From assembly GCA_963677895.2 (NCBI GenBank), contig CAXXGJ010000038.1:544001-608000 (forward strand): 64,000 bases of DNA, in the 5' to 3' direction. This stretch comes from Treponemataceae bacterium (GTDB lineage: Bacteria > Spirochaetota > Spirochaetia > Treponematales > Rectinemataceae). Made by a program: the position numbers. Shown here piece by piece: positions 30,001 through 36,000 of this stretch. How positions within the stretch are numbered: the stretch's first letter is position 1; each line of letters starts with the position of its first letter.

Positions 30001-33000
30001 AGGGAGTACGACACGGGCTTTTTCTATGGCCGCGAGGGGATGGACCTGTCGGCCGTCACGTCCTACCGGCAGACCCACCTTTTCGCGGGAAGCCTCGAGG
30101 ATATGCCGGCCATAGAGGATGGAGCCGCCCAGAACCTCGATGCCGGCGCGGAGAGGACTTCGCTGTTTTCGCGATTTGAAGACGAAGCCTGGACCATTCC
30201 CGTCTATGCCGAACTGAAGAACAGCATCCCGGCCGGCGAAGCCATAGAGGTCATTCCCCCCGAAGGGAAGGCCATCAGGCTCGAGGCGGAGGATTACAGA
30301 TTTTTCGACGTTGAGGGCTGCTCCGGAGGAAAAATCCGGCACGGCAAGCCATGGTTCCTGCAGATCAGAAAAGAAAGGCTGGGCGGGCTGATCCCTCAAG
30401 CCTCGTGGCTGCTCCGGATGGCCAGCGCTTAAGCCTTCAGCACCCCGCAGATCAGGTTGAACAGCCTCACGCAGTCGGAGGGTTTCGTGGCATAGCCCGT
30501 CCCCGAAGTCTCCTGCCTCACGACGATGCTGCCATAGGCGTCGTCGCCGCCGGCCTCTATTTCGTAGCCGCTCGCGCGCAGATCCTCGAACCTGCTGTAG
30601 CTGGCGCCCTTCCCCTTCGTGAGAATGACGGCGTAGAGATAGGGCACCTCGGCGCTCGGCCCCTTGTTGATGGCCGCCTGGACCTGGACGCCCACGAAAT
30701 CGTCGGCTTTGCGCTTGGGCTCGATCATGAGGCGGATATCCTCCGGCACGTCGCCCCCATTCTTGTCCTTGTCGAAGCGGAGATAGGGCGTGACGACGAC
30801 GTGCTCGGGAATCCGCTCGGCGAACAGCGCCTGGAAGCAGGGCATTTTCAGCGAAAGGACATGGGGCACGAAGGCCTTCACCCTTCCGAAAAACATGGCG
30901 GGGACGGCGAAAAGCAGTCCGTCGGCCAGAATCAGCGACAGATCGGGGCTGAAGGCGAGCGAAACCCCCGCGGCGATCGCCACGGCGCTTGCCAGCATGA
31001 CCATGAGGACGCTGCCGCCGATGGACTTGCCGAAAATCGCCTTCGATTCGCGCAGGGTATCGGCCAGCTTGTCGATCTCGGCCATCGAGACGGGACGCCA
31101 TTCCTCGAGCCCCTGGTCGGCCGGCTTGTTCGTGATCGGCTTGAGGCGGAGGGGAATGTAGCCGAGGACAATGGCGATCAAGCCGGGCAGCAGCCCCCAG
31201 CCGAAGAGGACCTGGAGGAGGGCTCCGGCGGAAAAAAGCCCTGCCGCGAGGGCCAACCTTGCGGAGAGACTCAGTTTCATGGAAGAAAATTCGTAGTCCA
31301 TCGCTTTACCTCTTTTCGTCGGCCGCGGAAACCGCGGGCCGCGACATCGCGCGATTATCGCCGCCTGCCCTTGTTGCCATCGTTTTTCCGGCGCTCTCGA
31401 GCTCGCCGTACCCAGCGTAGTCCCAATACAGGGGGCAGGCGGCCTGGCAGGCGGTGAAGGAACCGCAGCTTGCGCAGGATTCGGGAGCGTAGCGTTTATT
31501 CTTGAAGTGGGCGGCGCGTTCCGAGAACCAGATATCCGAAAAATCCTTCTTCAGAATGTTGCCGAGCGATTCGGGATAGGAGGAACAGGGCAGGATATCG
31601 CCGGCGGGATTCACGCTCAGGAGACCGTCGGCGGCGGCGCAGCTCTTGTTGCCCAAGCCCCTGGCGACGGGATTGTAGATGCAGAGCGGCGTCGGCGAAT
31701 ACCAGAAAAAGGTGAGCCCTTCCCTGAAGGCTTGCCTGCGGATTTCGTCGACGAAGGCTCCCGTTTCCGAATAGGCCACGAAGAGCTCGGGCGCCCGCTC
31801 AGAATTGGCCGCCGGGATGTAGAGGTTCATCGAAAAGCGCTCGACGCCGAGGCTCTTCAGGTAGGCGGGCATCGAGAGAAGGCTTTCCCTATTGGGCCGG
31901 GTAAGGGTCGAGTTGGTCTGCACGCGGATTCCCGCGGCGGCGAGCGCTTCGATGCCCGCCAAGGTGCGCTCGTGCGCGCCCGGGGCGCCGCAGAGGCGAT
32001 CGTGGATCGCGGCGTCGGGGCTTTCAAGGCTCACCTGGGCTGTCCTCAAGCCCGCCTTGTAGAGGGACCGGGCGCGCTCGGGGCTCGCCAGCGTACCGTT
32101 CGTGATCAAATTGACGCGAAGATGTATTCCGTCGGCATAGGCGATGAGCTCCTCGAGGTCAGCCCTGAGCAGCGGCTCCCCTCCGGTGAAGGAGAAAAAG
32201 GGAATTTTGGCCTTTTCCCTGAAAATGTCGATGACGCGCTTGATTTCCCGCGTATCCATCTCTTCCGACGCCATGCCGGAAGGAAAGGCTTGCCCGGATC
32301 CGCAGCTCCCGCCGCTTCCGCAGCCCGCGTAGCAGAAAAGGCAGCGATTGTTGCAGCGGTAGGTGACGGCTATCTCGCCCAGGATGGGGAGCCGGGTGAA
32401 GTCAAAGCCGTAGGCGACCTGCTCGGTCGTCACCTGGCGGCCATCGCAGATATCTTTGATGTCCGAAAGAAAGCCGGCTATGTCGCGCAGCTTCGCCGCG
32501 TCCATTCCCGGCAGCTTCTCGATTTTCTGGCCCGAATCGAGCGCCGCGAGGATCTTCACGCCCGTTTCATTGGTCTTGTAGACCATGTTGGGCGGAAGAA
32601 TGACGACGTTGTCCTCCTCGCGCACGAACACGTAATCGCGTACGGATTTCCAGAATCCCGGCACCCAGGAGAGATCTGGTCGGTCGCCTTGGTTCCTTGT
32701 GCGCGCGTTCTGATTGCCGCCGATCAATGACCGCCTCCGGATACGCAGGCCGAATGGCAGGCGGAGTGGCACGCCGAATGGCAGGCTGAATGACAAGCCG
32801 AATGGCAGGCGTCGTGGCAAGCGTTGTGGCAGGCCGAATAGCAGGCCCCCGCCTGGCCTTCCTTGCCGGGCGTGAAGCAACCTGAGAAGCAGGCCGAGGA
32901 GCGCATGAAATCGCTGTAACCCGTCGAGAGCGCCTCGGGAAGTCCCAGCCCCGAGAAGCGCGTGGGATGGGAATGGACATAGCAGTAGCCATGCCAGTAG

Positions 33001-36000
33001 TACCAGTAATGGTTCCGGGCGCGCCAGGCAAGCCGGCGCTCTTCGTCCATAAGCGCTTCGCCGCTTTTTCGCTCAGACTCCATCGTCTCGGCCTCGGCCA
33101 GCAGCGCCCGGTAATGAGCCTTCGTCGCTTCCATATCGCAGTCCCAGAGCTTTTCCTGGAGCCCTCGGATCGTCGCCTCGAAGAAGTCCATCATCAGGCC
33201 GGACAGCACCCTGCCCTCTGCGTCGAAGCAGGCGAGGAAACTTTCCTCGATCGCGTCCTTCGCCTCATTCCGGCTCAGGATGGAAATCCTCAAGGGATTT
33301 TCCTCCGCGATCTCGATGATTCCCTGACTGCGCAGCCCTTCCAGCATGAGGGCGACGACCCTGGCGAGGGGGAACTCGAAGAGAAGCGCCACTTCGGCGG
33401 GATGCAAATCCTCGGCCACCTTGCCCGGAACCTGGTAGGTTCCGGTGAACAGCTTGGGCGGCACCCAGGAATCGCCGGCCCAGGCGATTCCCTTCACGAG
33501 CGCGGCGCGCTTTCCGTAGCGGCGAAGGTTCAGCATGTAAAGGTAAAGCGCCAGCGCGATGAGCGCCGCGAAGGCCGGAACCGCGACGAGGGGATTCGCC
33601 AGCAGCCTGAGGCCGCGCAGGCTTTCTCCGTCACCGCCCGATCCTTCGGCGGCGCCCGGCCGCGCCATTGCCCCAGGTTGCCCAACGGCCCCAGGTTGCC
33701 CCGTAGCCCCCGCCTGCCCGGCCGCCTCATCGAAGACCGCCGACATGGGCAGATAGCCTTCGGGGAAATACAGCCGCAGGCGCTGGGTTTGCCGCGCCGC
33801 AAGCTTTTCCTGGAAAAACCTCAGCGTCAGGTAATACGAGCCGTCGTCGCCCTTCGATCCGTAGTAATCGATCTTGTTCTCGGCATTCACCGATTTTTCG
33901 GTTTTGAGAGGAACGCCTGAGCGCTCGGTTTCGGTGAGCGACTCGCCGCCTACCTTCATGGGGAGCACGAGCCTCACCGTCCGCGACGCCATGCCCGTAT
34001 CCCACTCGACAGGAGCCCAGTCGAAGTAGAAAAGATCCCCGAACTCCTGGCTGGTTGTCCTGCCGATGAGGCCGGCGCGGGCGAAATCCCCCGCATAGTG
34101 CAGGAAGTAGTAGGCGCTGCCGGAAAAGCCCTTGCCGCCCGCGAGGATGACATCGAATTTTCCCGAACCCATGGGCTTGATGGAAAGTGGCTGGCGGAGA
34201 CCGCCGGGGATATCGGCGTAGCAGCCGTTCATGTCCCAGACGGGCTCGAAGGTCTCGCCCTGGAAATAGAAACCGTGCATCTGGCCGCCCGAGGCTTCCC
34301 ATTTGAGGCTGTAGTACAGATCCGCTTTGCCGTCGGTCCGCAAAACCACCGTGATGTCGGCCGAATCCAGCGATGTCGAAAGAGCGGAAAGGCCGCCCAC
34401 GAGAGCGAAAAGCGCGATGGCGAGCATCGCCCCGAAACGCGTTCGTTTCATTCAATCTCCTCCCTGACCGACATGCGGCCGGACGCGGGCAAGCCGCCGT
34501 CTATCTGTATCCGCCGCTCCCGCAGAAGCCCCGCTTTTTCGCGCAGCGCCGCGGCGACGCGGCTTTCCGCGTCCGCGAAGGGGTCCGCGTCCTCCAGGCC
34601 GAAGCGTTTCTCGGTAGCGGCTTCGTCCTTTTCCTTCTGAAAAATGTCGACGATATCGAGCGCCTCGTCCAGCGCGGCGTCGGCTAGTGGATCGTCCTTG
34701 CCTTCCCGCCCGCAGGCATCCAGATACTCGCCCGCGGCCAGCGCGACGAGGCGGACGGCATCGGCCGCTGGCCCCTCGGCGATCCTGATCCGCGCCAATT
34801 TCTCCCTCGAGGCGGCGGCATGGCTCAGCTTCTTCGCCCTATCGCGCCCGAGCGCCGCGTCCCTGGCGGCGATGGCTGATTTAGGTCCAGCCCCGACTAA
34901 AAGAAAAATTAACCCGGCCGAAATTACGATGGCCGATCCTATCAAGAGCGCGAAGCCCGCCGGAAATCCGCCGGCGAGGCCCGCGAGCGCTGCGGCCAGT
35001 CCCGCGAAGCCGCTGCCGATCCCCAGCGGAGAGCGCGCGTACCATTTCAGATAATCCTTGGGAAGCATGTTAAGACTCTACTATTACGGCCCCCCTCGTG
35101 CAAGGAGCCCGCCATGCCGCTTTCGATTGCCCCGCTGCGGGAAACGGCGCTCCAGAAAGTCCGGCGCGGCGAAAAACTTGACAATCGCCTCCGGCTCCTC
35201 TAGGGTTGTATCGTACGAGTGAAGGGAGGCTACCATGAAAAGTATCCGGACTAGTTTCTCCAGGCTCAGGCGCGGCGCCTTCCTGTCGGGCGCGGCGCTC
35301 GCCCTCGCCATGATCGCCGCGTCCTGCGCGACCACGCAGCCTGTCGTCTACAAACTGGACATCATTCCCGAGGCGAAGGCCAGGACCGAAATCGTGATGC
35401 CTCTTCTCACGACGTTGCGCGATTTCGGCAACAACATGGCGGCCCTCATGCTCACCGATTATCGCTTCGCGGAAATGAAGGAAACCGGCGGGGGCGCGTA
35501 TCTCTATCGTTTCGATAGAACGAACCAGAAACTTCCGCGCCACGCCTACATCGTATTCCGCCTCGAGGGGAGTCCGGCCATAACGACCAACCTCGGCGAA
35601 AAGAACTACATTCTCCTGGACGGCGGCTCCATAGGTCTCGTGCCCGCCGACGAACCGGCCGTCGTCGCCAACGGGAAATTCACTCTGCAGTTCACGAAGA
35701 GCGACTTCCGCGAGGCCTTCAATCCCTGGGTCATCGGCGAAAAAGGCAGCTACCCCGAACAGCTTCTCCTCTGGCTCAAGAACCCTGCCAGCAAGGAGGC
35801 GGACATGAAAAACCTGGCCTCGCTGCTGACGAGCGCCTTTCCGAGGATAGTCTACAAGATGAATTGAGTGGGGCTATTTCTGCCTGCGTTTGGCCGACAT
35901 TCGAGAGAGCCAGTCGGGAAATTCCTTCTCGACGAATTCGAAGATGTCGTGCGCTTCCTCGATCCGCACCTTCAGGGCTGGATCTGAGCCCTTTTTGAGC

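Follow-up and report, generated by a model that had tools for sequence, protein, structure and literature searches.

A membrane protein with a Cys/His tetrad-repeat tail and its linked radical SAM/SPASM enzyme: a candidate substrate and maturase pair in Treponematales and beyond

The window, a 64,000-nucleotide stretch of a Treponemataceae genome, carries a minus-strand cassette of four genes, which by ORF reading run in the order g77, g76, g75 and g74. The genes and their parts are as follows.

34448..35068, minus strand: g77, first cassette gene, 206 aa; two hydrophobic helices near the N-terminus span about residues 25-63, and the C-terminal part is helical (ORF, hydrophobic segments)
32724..34451, minus strand: g76, a predicted bitopic carrier of 575 aa, with signal/anchor helix, beta-sandwich ectodomain, one transmembrane (TM) helix, cytoplasmic domain and Cys/His tetrad tail (ORF, AF2)
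33762..34379, minus strand: g76 ectodomain, residues 25-230, a modelled beta-sandwich distantly like the DUF2207 N-terminal domain (pLDDT 93-98)
33489..33593, minus strand: predicted g76 TM helix, residues 287-321, followed by RRYGKR (positive-inside) (AF2 model, hydrophobic segments)
32892..33449, minus strand: predicted folded domain of g76 on the cytoplasmic side, roughly residues 335-520, in which WAGDxWxPP and WDCDxEAT are invariant (alignments, AF2)
32868..32900, minus strand: pre-tail motif S-x-x-C-F-x-G-C-F-x-P, residues 518-528, conserved in alignments
32739..32846, minus strand: nine Cys tetrads, g76 residues 536-571, ACYS ACHN ACHD (ACHS)5 ACVS (sequence)
32724..32738, minus strand: GGGH codons and TGA stop, with a GGAGG Shine-Dalgarno-like stretch and the g75 TTG start (caTTGA) (sequence)
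31306..32727, minus strand: g75, 473-aa radical SAM (rSAM)/SPASM enzyme with an N-terminal domain like a RiPP recognition element (RRE) (Pfam, AF2)
32446..32664, minus strand: g75 N-domain, model residues 21-93, three strands then helices, the winged-helix pattern of RREs (model secondary structure)
32332..32355, minus strand: CxxxCxxC rSAM cluster motif, C124, C128 and C131, invariant in 71 sequences
31435..31683, minus strand: SPASM region with seven conserved Cys, C348, C362, C380, C417, C420, C426 and C430 (alignment A8, Pfam SPASM)
30429..31301, minus strand: g74, last cassette gene, a 290-aa membrane protein with hydrophobic segments 16-34 and 89-126 and a conserved C-terminal soluble domain (ORF, hydrophobic segments)

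The initial annotation described an overlapping four-gene operon, which holds for g77/g76 (4 nt, ATGA) and g76/g75 but not for g75 and g74, which are separated by 4 nt. The TTG at 32727-32725 overlaps the g76 stop and yields the 473-aa enzyme; this start fits the domain limits given in that annotation, Radical_SAM 121-275 and SPASM 363-421, because Pfam places these domains at 172-326 and 414-472 of the 524-aa ORF, 51 residues further on. The coupling of the two genes is conserved among relatives: the rSAM start codon overlaps the tail stop in 72 of 77 junctions (63 TTG and 9 ATG), a G-rich Shine-Dalgarno-like motif lies upstream in 71/77, and the carrier stop is TGA in 74/77 tails. CAT encodes the terminal His in 63 of 77 tails, versus 244/563 (43%) of the other tail His codons, a bias with a Fisher p of ~4e-11 among relatives that are not independent. 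Conservation of the last four residues may be partly due to the overlapping ribosome-binding site and not to the protein, which counts against reading the tail as a substrate.

Profile searches agree with the earlier statement that g76 belongs to no Pfam or NCBIfam family, and the homologue count of 23 was obtained again; genome_contigs holds 374 relatives. In the AF2 model (mean pLDDT 81), the ectodomain has as its best Foldseek matches ribophorin I/OST1 and the N-domain of M1 aminopeptidases, at E 7e-7 and weaker. PF09972 has no match in the g76 of the window itself; among homologues it reaches 31 bits in P0008, above cut-off, and stays below it in P0010 and P0013. In more distant carriers, the region of the cytoplasmic domain weakly matches TIGR04222 ("near_uncomplex") in three of seven proteins, with 18-23 bits against a cut-off of 43. 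The pre-tail motif reads SSACFSGCF and not SCFSGCF as first given, an A having been dropped, and S518, C521, G524, C525 and P528 show little or no variation (alignments A1 and A5). The tail follows the single TM helix with its positive-inside flank and is thus predicted to lie in the cytoplasm. No signal peptide was found in g75, so that tail and enzyme would share a compartment, a point in support of the substrate reading.

The C-terminus of g76 is as first described, nine tetrads followed by GGGH, and its general form is xCxS-ACHN-ACHD-(ACHS)5-ACVS. The strict repeat number claimed for it stands in genome assemblies, where 75 of 77 complete tails have nine tetrads and two have eight, but not in the metagenome-predicted proteins P0008, P0010 and P0013, which have four to five, perhaps from repeats collapsed in assembly. 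None of the 75 nine-tetrad tails departs from the pattern at any of the nine Cys, at the seven His in tetrads 2-8, at Ala in tetrads 2-9 or at the closing Val (75/75 each), and these tails come in 74 distinct nucleotide versions versus 34 distinct peptide versions; Cys and His are fixed while synonymous change runs free. Identity by tblastn is 62-87% in the tail versus 21-35% in the body, making the tail, at the level of sequence, the most constrained part of the carrier. A recent slippage array can be ruled out, since the 12-nt units agree only imperfectly as DNA (73% matches). The pattern ACHxACHxAC occurs once in the 3.5-Mb genome, in this tail.

The enzyme g75 matches Radical_SAM (E 8e-27) and SPASM (E 1.6e-10) in Pfam, and, as had been noted, every NCBIfam match falls far under its cut-off: AhbD, the best, scores 138.4 bits against 500, and other maturase families lie lower (ACGX 76.8 against 400, PapB 53.9 against 340, TIGR04463 33.7 against 525), which counts against the substrate reading. 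Its AF2 model (mean pLDDT 88.2, pTM 0.88) aligns with SkfB (VIA-align Z 26.6), SuiB (26.3), anSME (25.0), CteB (23.1) and EpeE (16.9). The SuiB alignment pairs model residues 24-444 with chain residues 2-439 and thus spans the N-terminal domain of SuiB. The weak PqqD match of the initial annotation was not recovered at E ≤ 0.1, but the model supports an RRE-like N-domain, which is kept in distant relatives with R35 and D38 invariant. As modelled, the RRE, radical SAM and SPASM architecture is that of the peptide maturases SkfB and SuiB. Six of the seven SPASM Cys are invariant, and C348 is conserved at 90% or more.

Of 80 related genome loci, 75 have the rSAM gene next after g76 and the other five are cut by the contig edge, in line with the earlier claim. 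The count of 84 carriers in 200 other Treponematales genomes was reproduced exactly (by family 31/51, 1/1, 2/51, 7/51, 4/4 and 39/42), giving 85/201 with the source genome. Across these 201 genomes, 83 have both genes, two the carrier only, one the enzyme only and 115 neither; the exceptions are fragments, the two lone carriers lying at contig ends and the lone enzyme being a fragment itself. Adjacency, overlapping stop and start, near-perfect co-occurrence and the RRE-type architecture support a tightly linked pair. A system conserved in Treponematales, as first proposed, is borne out but too narrow. Distant rSAM relatives (about 37-43% identical) led to 79 metagenome loci, of which 60 have a large membrane-protein ORF ending in CHSA-type repeats, and in four more the carrier body is cut by the contig end; some of the proteins match ones named by their sources as Asgard archaea. 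Judged from these sequences, the pairing extends to other bacteria and to Asgard-like archaeal contigs. On the strand of the rSAM gene, the carrier may be encoded either upstream or downstream of it (downstream in L088, L089, L103, L114); in L093, L095, L097, L099 and L101 the two genes are divergent. Adjacency is not universal, since L107 and L113 show no carrier within ~6 kb on either side of the rSAM gene, another point against the substrate reading. Only enzyme, carrier and a clade-varying accessory protein form clusters in most of the 79 loci.

The enzyme most likely modifies the tail, since it is encoded with the tail protein and translationally coupled to it in spirochaetes, and is encoded with such proteins in distant bacteria and Asgard archaea; we put a probability of roughly 60% on the tail being a protein-borne substrate of g75. 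The carrier would be exported N-terminus-out with a single membrane span, as sequence and model suggest, leaving the cytoplasmic domain and the (A-C-H-x)9 tail inside. Ribosomes ending the tail could re-initiate at the overlapping g75 start, and since this overlap is conserved, the enzyme would be made beside its substrate. Once bound to g76, it would modify the tetrads one after another by means of the 5'-deoxyadenosyl radical. Cys thioether rings would be the likeliest chemistry, making up about half of the substrate reading: in each tetrad, the Cys sulfur would be joined to a neighbouring residue carbon in a small intramolecular ring of the ranthionine or sactionine type, comparable to what a 2026 experimental report describes for CrpC on CrpA (PMC13692751). 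The modified tail would stay on the membrane protein, since the pair is not accompanied by any conserved protease or exporter, and its His side chains, leftover thiols and thioethers could form a fixed ligand array, plausibly for metal binding or redox.

In view of that report, the earlier claim of a full-size protein as the substrate of a maturation system not described before is overstated. CrpC, likewise an RRE-rSAM-SPASM enzyme, forms thioethers at Cys motifs of CrpA, a protein of 28.8 kDa, so that g76 would not be the first full-size protein substrate. The authors of that report argue that seven SPASM Cys, the number also found in g75, leave an open iron on AuxI for a substrate Cys (PMC13692751). 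The acceptor motifs given there for CrpA, C-x-x-Q/D, are absent from the g76 tail, which counts against the substrate reading. NCBIfam TIGR04117 ("Cys-Xaa-Xaa-Xaa repeat radical SAM target protein") is a bioinformatic precedent; the tail matches it weakly, and the cassette stays below the cut-offs of the NCBIfam Cxxx-repeat rSAM target families.

A tail that is a substrate for another chemistry is a tentative second possibility, be it a His cross-link or alteration (a bridge between Cys and His, or a three-residue cyclophane centred on the His of H-S-A), epimerisation, or Cys oxidation as in anSME. His and Ser match Cys in invariance across tetrads 2-8, and all tail variants share CHS as a constant core. 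Three-residue cyclophane enzymes target aromatic-X-X repeats, His included, and among the structural neighbours SuiB forms a C-C cross-link, anSME oxidises Cys or Ser and EpeE is an epimerase. However, g75 reaches no curated family for such chemistries, and the tail lacks the C-x-P-x-R sulfatase motif that anSME recognises. Seven SPASM Cys are moreover the pattern discussed for thioether formers (PMC13692751). It is unlikely that the tail goes unmodified and serves to bind metal or Fe-S clusters, perhaps as a helix in which Cys recur at i/i+4 and His stand at i+1, with the enzyme acting elsewhere or using the tail to dock at the membrane, as a source of clusters or as a path for electrons. A constant number of Cys and His at constant spacing is equally expected of such a site, which counts against the substrate reading. 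The AF2 model gives the tail as a single long helix, with a low-confidence pLDDT of 42-46 that also weighs against the substrate reading. Proteins of the weakly matched DUF2207 and TIGR04222 families often end in low-complexity tails with no rSAM partner. An unmodified tail leaves unexplained, however, the RRE-type peptide-binding domain and an enzyme family that tracks the tail over bacteria and archaea in three gene orders, and no other candidate substrate gene is conserved with the enzyme. In favour of a metal-binding tail, CrpA is also suspected of binding metal (PMC13692751).

That the tail is a true RiPP core, cut off the carrier after modification and released or exported as a free peptide, is very improbable. 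The layout is precursor-like, a long "leader" before a C-terminal repeat core, and a U32 peptidase gene is convergent to g74 in the window; yet this gene, like the flanking MarR gene, is retained only in the closest loci (L001, L002, L009), the 79 distant loci share no conserved cluster of proteases or transporters, and the carrier body, with its ectodomain and TM helix, is itself conserved. Scarcely credible is a tail whose overlapping C-x3-C-H motifs bind c-type haem, with an AhbD/NirJ-like enzyme acting on a tetrapyrrole. CHSACH can be read as CX3CH, one Cytochrom_C_asm gene lies elsewhere in the genome, and the best NCBIfam matches of the enzyme are AhbD, NirJ2 and AhbC, but these score 117-144 bits against cut-offs of 500-650, and a search of the genome, which is 92.8% complete, found no porphobilinogen synthase (PF00490). 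Cytochrome c is matured outside the cytoplasm whereas the tail is predicted to be cytoplasmic, and we know of no precedent for eight residues per haem.

The two outer genes of the cassette accompany the pair in most related loci, and profile searches place neither g77 nor g74 in a Pfam or NCBIfam family. Upstream of g76, g77 is present in 70 of 80 loci; six lack room for it, and four have room with no match at E 1e-5. g74 is found in 66/80, the remaining 14 lacking room. Five of 52 g74 members weakly match DUF2207_C (best E 0.031), and in the ESM Atlas g74 falls in unnamed clusters only, which come from Spirochaetota and Thorarchaeota.

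The tailed membrane carrier (g76) and the radical SAM (rSAM)/SPASM enzyme (g75) are encoded in a minus-strand cassette of four genes, listed here in transcription order.

34448-35068, minus strand: g77, 206 aa
32724-34451, minus strand: g76, the tailed membrane carrier, 575 aa
31306-32727, minus strand: g75, the rSAM/SPASM enzyme, 473 aa counted from its TTG start
30429-31301, minus strand: g74, 290 aa

The g77/g76 junction is an ATGA overlap; the stop codon of g76 is likewise overlapped, in caTTGA, by a TTG that is in frame with g75, and g75 and g74 are spaced 4 nt apart. A Pfam scan of the cassette placed Radical_SAM and SPASM on g75 and returned no Pfam match for g77, g76 or g74. 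The initial annotation, which described this operon as the pairing of an rSAM/SPASM enzyme with a tailed membrane protein, is accurate in all checkable details; its homologue count of 23 and its survey, which found the system in 84 of 200 other Treponematales genomes, were both reproduced, the latter family by family. As a weak lead from sequence, g74 may be a split-off DUF2207 C-terminal domain (5/52 members match, best E 0.031). An identification of g77 as LemA is unsupported, with a LemA match in none of 42 members.

Relatives of g76 in species-representative genomes number 374, and linkage was counted in the best 80 of these, all spirochaete-type records apart from three under the label Myxococcales and a few whose label is just "bacterium". 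The rSAM gene lies 3' of g76 on the same strand in 75 of these 80 loci, the other five ending within or just after g76. Likewise, g77 is found 5' of g76 in 70 (six leave no room, and four have room and no match at E 1e-5), and g74 is found downstream in 66, the remaining 14 being without room. The U32 peptidase and MarR genes that flank the cassette in the window recur only in L001, L002 and L009 among these 80 loci. Since flanking genes are rarely kept while cassette members are retained, the four genes constitute the conserved unit. In the wider survey, 85 of 201 sampled Treponematales genomes have g76 and 84 have the rSAM orthologue (E <= 1e-60), with both in 83 and neither in 115, figures that are counts only, as the genomes are mutually related. 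The exceptions are two genomes with g76 only (G047 and G063), in which both matches are cut by contig ends, and one with an rSAM fragment only (G117).

The surroundings of the cassette in the window include the following genes, the last two read by eye from their translations.

29023-30432, plus strand: peptidase U32 gene (Pfam E 2e-81), convergent with g74, the 3' ends overlapping by 4 nt
35235-35867, plus strand: 210-aa protein outside all Pfam families, whose signal sequence resembles that of a lipoprotein; conserved only in L001
35874-36341, minus strand: MarR-family regulator (MarR_2, E 1.4e-9) just upstream of the cassette, conserved only in L001
36462-39077, plus strand: 871-aa ORF with the P-type ATPase motifs DKTGTLT and TGDGVND
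26503-28305, minus strand: 600-aa ORF, an apparent fusion of two ABC ATPase domains of the ECF-transporter type

As the U32 gene stands beside the cassette only in the three closest loci, it is probably outside the system.

The C-terminus of g76 consists of SSACFSGCF, nine intervening residues, the tetrads ACYS-ACHN-ACHD-(ACHS)5-ACVS and a final GGGH. The underlying DNA has a 12-nt period with only 73% matches (Tandem Repeats Finder), and because its units differ by synonymous changes, the tail is not a young slippage array. A whole-assembly search found the ACHxACHxAC motif nowhere else in the 3.5 Mb. Among the best 80 of the 374 loci, 77 tails are complete; 75 have nine tetrads and two (L052, L056) have eight. 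Every Cys is identical in all 75 nine-tetrad tails, as are the His of tetrads 2-8, the Ala of tetrads 2-9 and the Val of the last tetrad, and each of these invariant positions is written in two to six synonymous codon forms. The same 75 tails comprise 74 distinct nucleotide versions, as compared with 34 distinct peptide versions. The tail is under extreme constraint at the protein level. Among metagenome-predicted proteins, P0008, P0010 and P0013 have tails of 4-5 tetrads, while P0011, P0020 and P0016 are frameshifted or fused forms; the frameshifted tails read in a Pro/Ala/Thr frame, and one protein is a 937-aa fusion to the rSAM enzyme without a tail. A likely, if putative, explanation is that the repeat may have collapsed or been mis-assembled in short-read assemblies; alternatively, the short and frameshifted tails may represent real variation. 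Pfam entry PF27846 (PF27846.1) is precomputed on one 102-aa tail fragment, P0328.

Carrier and enzyme are probably made from one ribosome passage, as suggested by the junction between their genes. At 63 of 77 junctions in the best 80 of 374 loci, the terminal His codon is CAT and the stop TGA, so that a TTG arises in frame with the rSAM gene; at nine more the stop is overlapped by an ATG (TGATG or TAATG), and five have neither. CAT accounts for 63/77 terminal His codons versus 43% (244/563) of the other tail His codons, and a G-rich, Shine-Dalgarno-like stretch is embedded in the Gly codons 5-16 nt upstream at 71 of the 77 junctions. Both the CAT/TGA overlap and the Shine-Dalgarno-like Gly codons indicate that the end of the tail owes part of its sequence to the start signals of the g75 gene, and the TTG would be the start actually used for g75.

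The AlphaFold2 model of g76 (mean pLDDT 81), which was built on a 79-sequence alignment, has the following parts.

residues 2-19: N-terminal signal/anchor helix
residues 25-230: beta-sandwich ectodomain, confidently modelled
residues 243-284: disordered linker of Gly/Ala/Pro/Gln
residues 287-321: single long transmembrane (TM) helix, then RRYGKR
about residues 351-520: cytoplasmic domain, helical and winged-helix-like, confidently modelled

The tail is modelled as one helix at a pLDDT of 42-46, too low to fix its conformation; this topology would place it on the cytoplasmic side, within reach of an Fe-S enzyme. By structure comparison, the ectodomain is similar to ribophorin I/OST1 and to the N-domain of M1 aminopeptidases. 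In overall build, g76 is like the DUF2207/TIGR04222 proteins, with their signal peptide, beta-sandwich ectodomain, TM helix, cytoplasmic domain and low-complexity C-terminal tail. Unlike those proteins, g76 itself matches neither model, and some of its homologues do so near or below the cut-off. For the DUF2207 N-domain (PF09972, gathering cut-off 24.4 bits), P0008 (31.0), L098 (26.0) and L142 (33.2) pass and other homologues score below; g76 has no match to it at E <= 10, nor does its own genome at E <= 1. Distant carriers show a weak match to TIGR04222 in their cytoplasmic domain, and a genome search found no other DUF2207 or TIGR04222 paralogues in this organism. We know of no rSAM partner for ordinary DUF2207/TIGR04222 members, and none of the DUF2207 papers found in the literature searched concerns rSAM enzymes. 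The small helical membrane protein encoded upstream of g76 recalls the LemA-DUF2207 gene pairs mentioned in PMC12631010.

The structure model of g75 is confident (pLDDT 88, pTM 0.88) and has N-terminal residues 20-95 folded as three strands and then helices, followed by the rSAM barrel and the SPASM domain. Its CxxxCxxC cluster motif (C124, C128, C131) is invariant in 71 sequences, distant ones included, and the domains match Pfam at E 8e-27 for Radical_SAM and at 41.5 bits, versus a cut-off of 21.5, for SPASM. Seven SPASM cysteines are conserved in the same 71 sequences, including C-x12-G-x4-C and C-x2-C-x5-C-x3-C, a set that is predicted to fit two auxiliary clusters. The PqqD-like N-terminal stretch that had been proposed for g75 is borne out by the model, in which the strands and helices at residues 33-93 (pLDDT 85-95) are RRE-like, and is not borne out by Pfam, which gives no PqqD match at E <= 0.1. 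Judged by fold only, g75 would carry an N-terminal PqqD-like RiPP recognition element (RRE), a putative peptide binder. When Foldseek matches were re-scored with VIA-align, the g75 model aligned with SkfB (Z 26.6, model 30-432 against chain 12-387), SuiB (Z 26.3, model 24-444 against chain 2-439), anSME (Z 25.0), CteB (Z 23.1) and PqqE (Z 22.5). The SuiB and SkfB alignments take in the N-terminal peptide-recognition domains of these enzymes, and the g75 sequence profile also recovers SkfB, PqqE, SuiB and CteB. A whole-chain fold of N-terminal RRE, TIM-barrel rSAM core and SPASM is common to g75 and to the sactipeptide/ranthipeptide maturases and their relatives (SkfB 6efn, CteB 5wgg/5why, PapB family, SuiB 5v1q-t), at Z 23-27 over 296-377 aligned residues and sequence identities of only 16-21%; the substrates of these solved enzymes are short leader-core peptides that are released, unlike the large g76. 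The enzyme has the architectural features of the RRE/radical-SAM/SPASM maturase class, its substrate being predicted from gene linkage.

The NCBIfam models match g75 only below threshold, the best being AhbD (138.4 bits versus a cut-off of 500). Among the others are NirJ (116.8 versus 500), rSAM_ACGX (TIGR04340, 76.8 versus 400, with 75-100 bits in distant relatives), StsB (71.9 versus 625), PapB (53.9 versus 340) and rSAM_vs_C_rich (TIGR04463, the CrpC family, 33.7 versus 525, over model positions 84-270). Neither rSAM_Cxxx_rpt (TIGR04115, cut-off 350 bits) nor CXXX_matur (TIGR04119, 150 bits) has a match at E <= 10 in the whole genome. Thus, g75 belongs to no curated family. Selenocysteine was considered in the rSAM relatives and rejected, as the in-frame TGA codons of three references are true stop codons.

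Conservation across the Treponematales, as initially claimed, holds as far as presence is concerned, yet the system is not restricted to this order, and the pair is much older and more widespread than was initially supposed. A search of 1.84 billion representative proteins with g75 returned 143 at E <= 1e-30, including full-length relatives of 32-48% identity that retain the N-domain, and their source names include Aminicenantes/Acidobacteriota, Promethearchaeota/Lokiarchaeota and Odinarchaeota/Asgardarchaeia. In 60 of 79 metagenome loci fetched with an alignment of distant rSAM enzymes, there is a large ORF, of about 570-955 aa when not truncated, with CHSA-type repeats at its end. The carrier body is cut by a contig end in four more, and most of the remaining loci have less than 1.5 kb on the relevant side of the rSAM gene; at L107 and L113 the carrier is absent despite about 6 kb on both sides. 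The two Asgard-named lineages are represented by L088, whose rSAM protein is 99% identical to one of a cluster named Odinarchaeota, and by L131, whose rSAM protein is 72% identical to one named Promethearchaeota/Lokiarchaeota, and both loci have a tailed protein. The archaeal-type carrier of L089 is built to the plan of g76: a signal helix and an ectodomain come first, then a TM helix with basic residues after it, an extended cytoplasmic stretch and, at the end, the tail.

The arrangement of these distant loci varies. The carrier is upstream on the same strand in most, downstream in L088, L089, L103 and L114, and divergent in L093, L095, L097, L099 and L101. Within each clade the tail layout is fixed, with A-C-H-S blocks punctuated by A-C-V; some clades have 5- and 6-residue units, C-H-S being the constant core. 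By tblastn, the tails of distant carriers are 62-87% identical to that of g76 and the bodies 21-35%. The accessory gene is a g74-like membrane protein in nearer clades. In distant clades this is replaced by a 393-aa coiled-coil protein (49/78 metagenome loci) and a 163-aa protein that combines two TM helices with a zinc ribbon (CxxC...CxxC) at its C-terminus (27/78), which follow the rSAM gene in that order (L098, 7446-8624 and 8631-9119). The enzyme and the tailed carrier are the only components shared by nearly all loci, and that these two form a real gene system is well supported. One clade (L119, L126, L127, L130, L152, L155, L156, L160) shares three extra neighbours, recognized by eye from translations: GT4-type glycosyltransferase-like and GHMP-kinase-like genes, both upstream, and a gene for a 670-aa secreted HExxH metalloprotease-like protein downstream. 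These neighbours are present in only 8-12 loci.

Systems of this kind are known by experiment and by prediction, in the sense that an rSAM/SPASM maturase acts on the Cys-repeat region of a neighbouring gene product. The main experimental case, according to Dieter et al. 2026 (PMC13692751), is CrpC of Methanococcus voltae (TIGR04463), an RRE-rSAM-SPASM enzyme that installs ranthionine-type thioethers on Cys motifs of CrpA, joining each Cys to a residue a few positions downstream. CrpA is described there as soluble and 28.8 kDa in mass, with ten repeats of 17 residues and acceptors of the form C-x-x-Q/D, and a set of seven SPASM cysteines is said to leave one auxiliary-cluster iron free for a substrate cysteine; the QhpD/QhpC and anSME cases, also experimental, are cited in the same paper. 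The two systems are alike in that an RRE/radical-SAM/SPASM enzyme with seven SPASM cysteines is encoded beside a large protein with a C-terminal Cys repeat, and in that the substrate (for g75, the predicted one) is a protein and not a short peptide. In both, too, neither a protease nor an exporter is known and a role related to metals is suspected. CrpA is soluble, g76 a predicted bitopic membrane protein of DUF2207-like build whose A-C-H-S units are 4 residues long and have an invariant His. In the main text of PMC13692751 the words membrane, transmembrane, histidine, Spirochaet and Asgard do not occur. Its supplementary data set 1, on RS-associated Cys-rich proteins of other taxa, may include this family, as may Pfam entry PF27846.

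The predicted cases are the CXXX-repeat systems (TIGR04117, TIGR04115, TIGR04119) and the ACGX-repeat system (TIGR04340), and the literature search found no paper on either repeat with radical SAM. Like the g76 tail, CXXX-repeat proteins have a C-terminal repeat with a Cys at every fourth residue, and the status of TIGR04117 as a "Cys-Xaa-Xaa-Xaa repeat radical SAM target protein" was predicted from gene neighbourhood. The tail alone scores 16 bits with this model (E 0.0097) versus a cut-off of 50, P0008 scores 7.7 bits, and full-length g76 has no match. CXXX-repeat targets are proteins of about 100 aa that are not known to be membrane proteins, and the system is a predicted one. The ACGX system has A-C-x-x tetrads and an adjoining rSAM/SPASM enzyme, as the cassette does, and differs in having Gly where the tail has His as its third residue, and in the large membrane protein that serves here as carrier. 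The initial description of an undescribed maturation system can thus be kept for the variant, which missed every family cut-off tested, and not for the kind. As judged from sequence, the cassette differs from the known systems in three ways: its DUF2207-like bitopic carrier, its A-C-H-S unit with invariant His, and its range from many bacterial lineages to Asgard archaea. In the literature searched, including for "ACHSACHS" and PF27846, no paper on the g76/g75 system was found.

The tail is probably the substrate of g75 (probability about 0.6); it would be synthesised and modified at the membrane by this enzyme and the product retained there. This reading draws on the peptide-maturase architecture of the enzyme, the survival of the pairing through changes of gene order and the split between bacteria and archaea, the translational coupling, the position of the tail as the most conserved part of the carrier, and the cytoplasmic location of both partners. 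Within it, thioether rings from Cys to a neighbouring residue are the leading chemistry, at roughly even odds, as suggested by the seven-Cys SPASM pattern and the direct precedent of CrpC/CrpA. The invariance of His and Ser in the tail would also be consistent with modification by some other chemistry, which is possible and the less favoured choice. The fixed geometry of Cys and His would suit an unmodified metal site equally well, and this alternative we consider doubtful.

Release of the tail as a free peptide is quite unlikely. When proteins of 33-105 aa were searched with a 60-aa stretch of tail, three of 146 candidates matched; two of these lie on contigs of 578 and 728 nt and resemble cut carrier ends, and the third, P0327, appears frameshifted, so that no stand-alone peptide form was found in this size range. 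Haem binding, for which the tail could be read as CX3CH, is less credible still, as the AhbD and NirJ scores of g75 fall short of their 500-bit cut-offs and porphobilinogen synthase (PF00490) was not found in the 92.8%-complete genome. As to what a modified tail would do, one can only guess from its composition at a metal or redox role. A more elaborate and speculative form of the substrate reading is that the tail becomes a rigid, polycyclic, protein-borne cofactor, in which a ladder of thioether or Cys-His cross-links presents a fixed row of His and sulfur ligands that would hold metal ions or Fe-S units in a linear chain on the inner side of the membrane. If true, anaerobic bacteria and Asgard archaea would have in common an ancient device, anchored to a transmembrane protein and serving redox, metal sensing or electron transfer, that resembles no described cofactor.

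To our knowledge, work on radical-SAM/SPASM maturases has dealt almost wholly with the making of small peptides that are released, and we know of only a handful of cases of whole-protein modification, namely QhpC, sulfatases and, in 2026, CrpA. The g76/g75 pair would add a membrane protein as substrate and a new motif under extreme constraint, with Cys and His invariant at every position, and it would give a first functional handle on the large group of DUF2207/TIGR04222-like membrane proteins with odd C-terminal tails. That the pair extends from spirochaetes to Asgard archaea points to a basic role in the cells of anaerobes, and away from an antibiotic. The system is small and would be simple to study, with one enzyme and an 80-residue fragment of the predicted substrate. 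As a separate observation, the genome has one Cytochrom_C_asm (CcsA/CcmC-like) gene (contig C25, 182215-182805, plus strand, 143.8 bits), which is odd in an organism that, lacking a detectable porphobilinogen synthase in this 92.8%-complete assembly, is seemingly unable to make haem.
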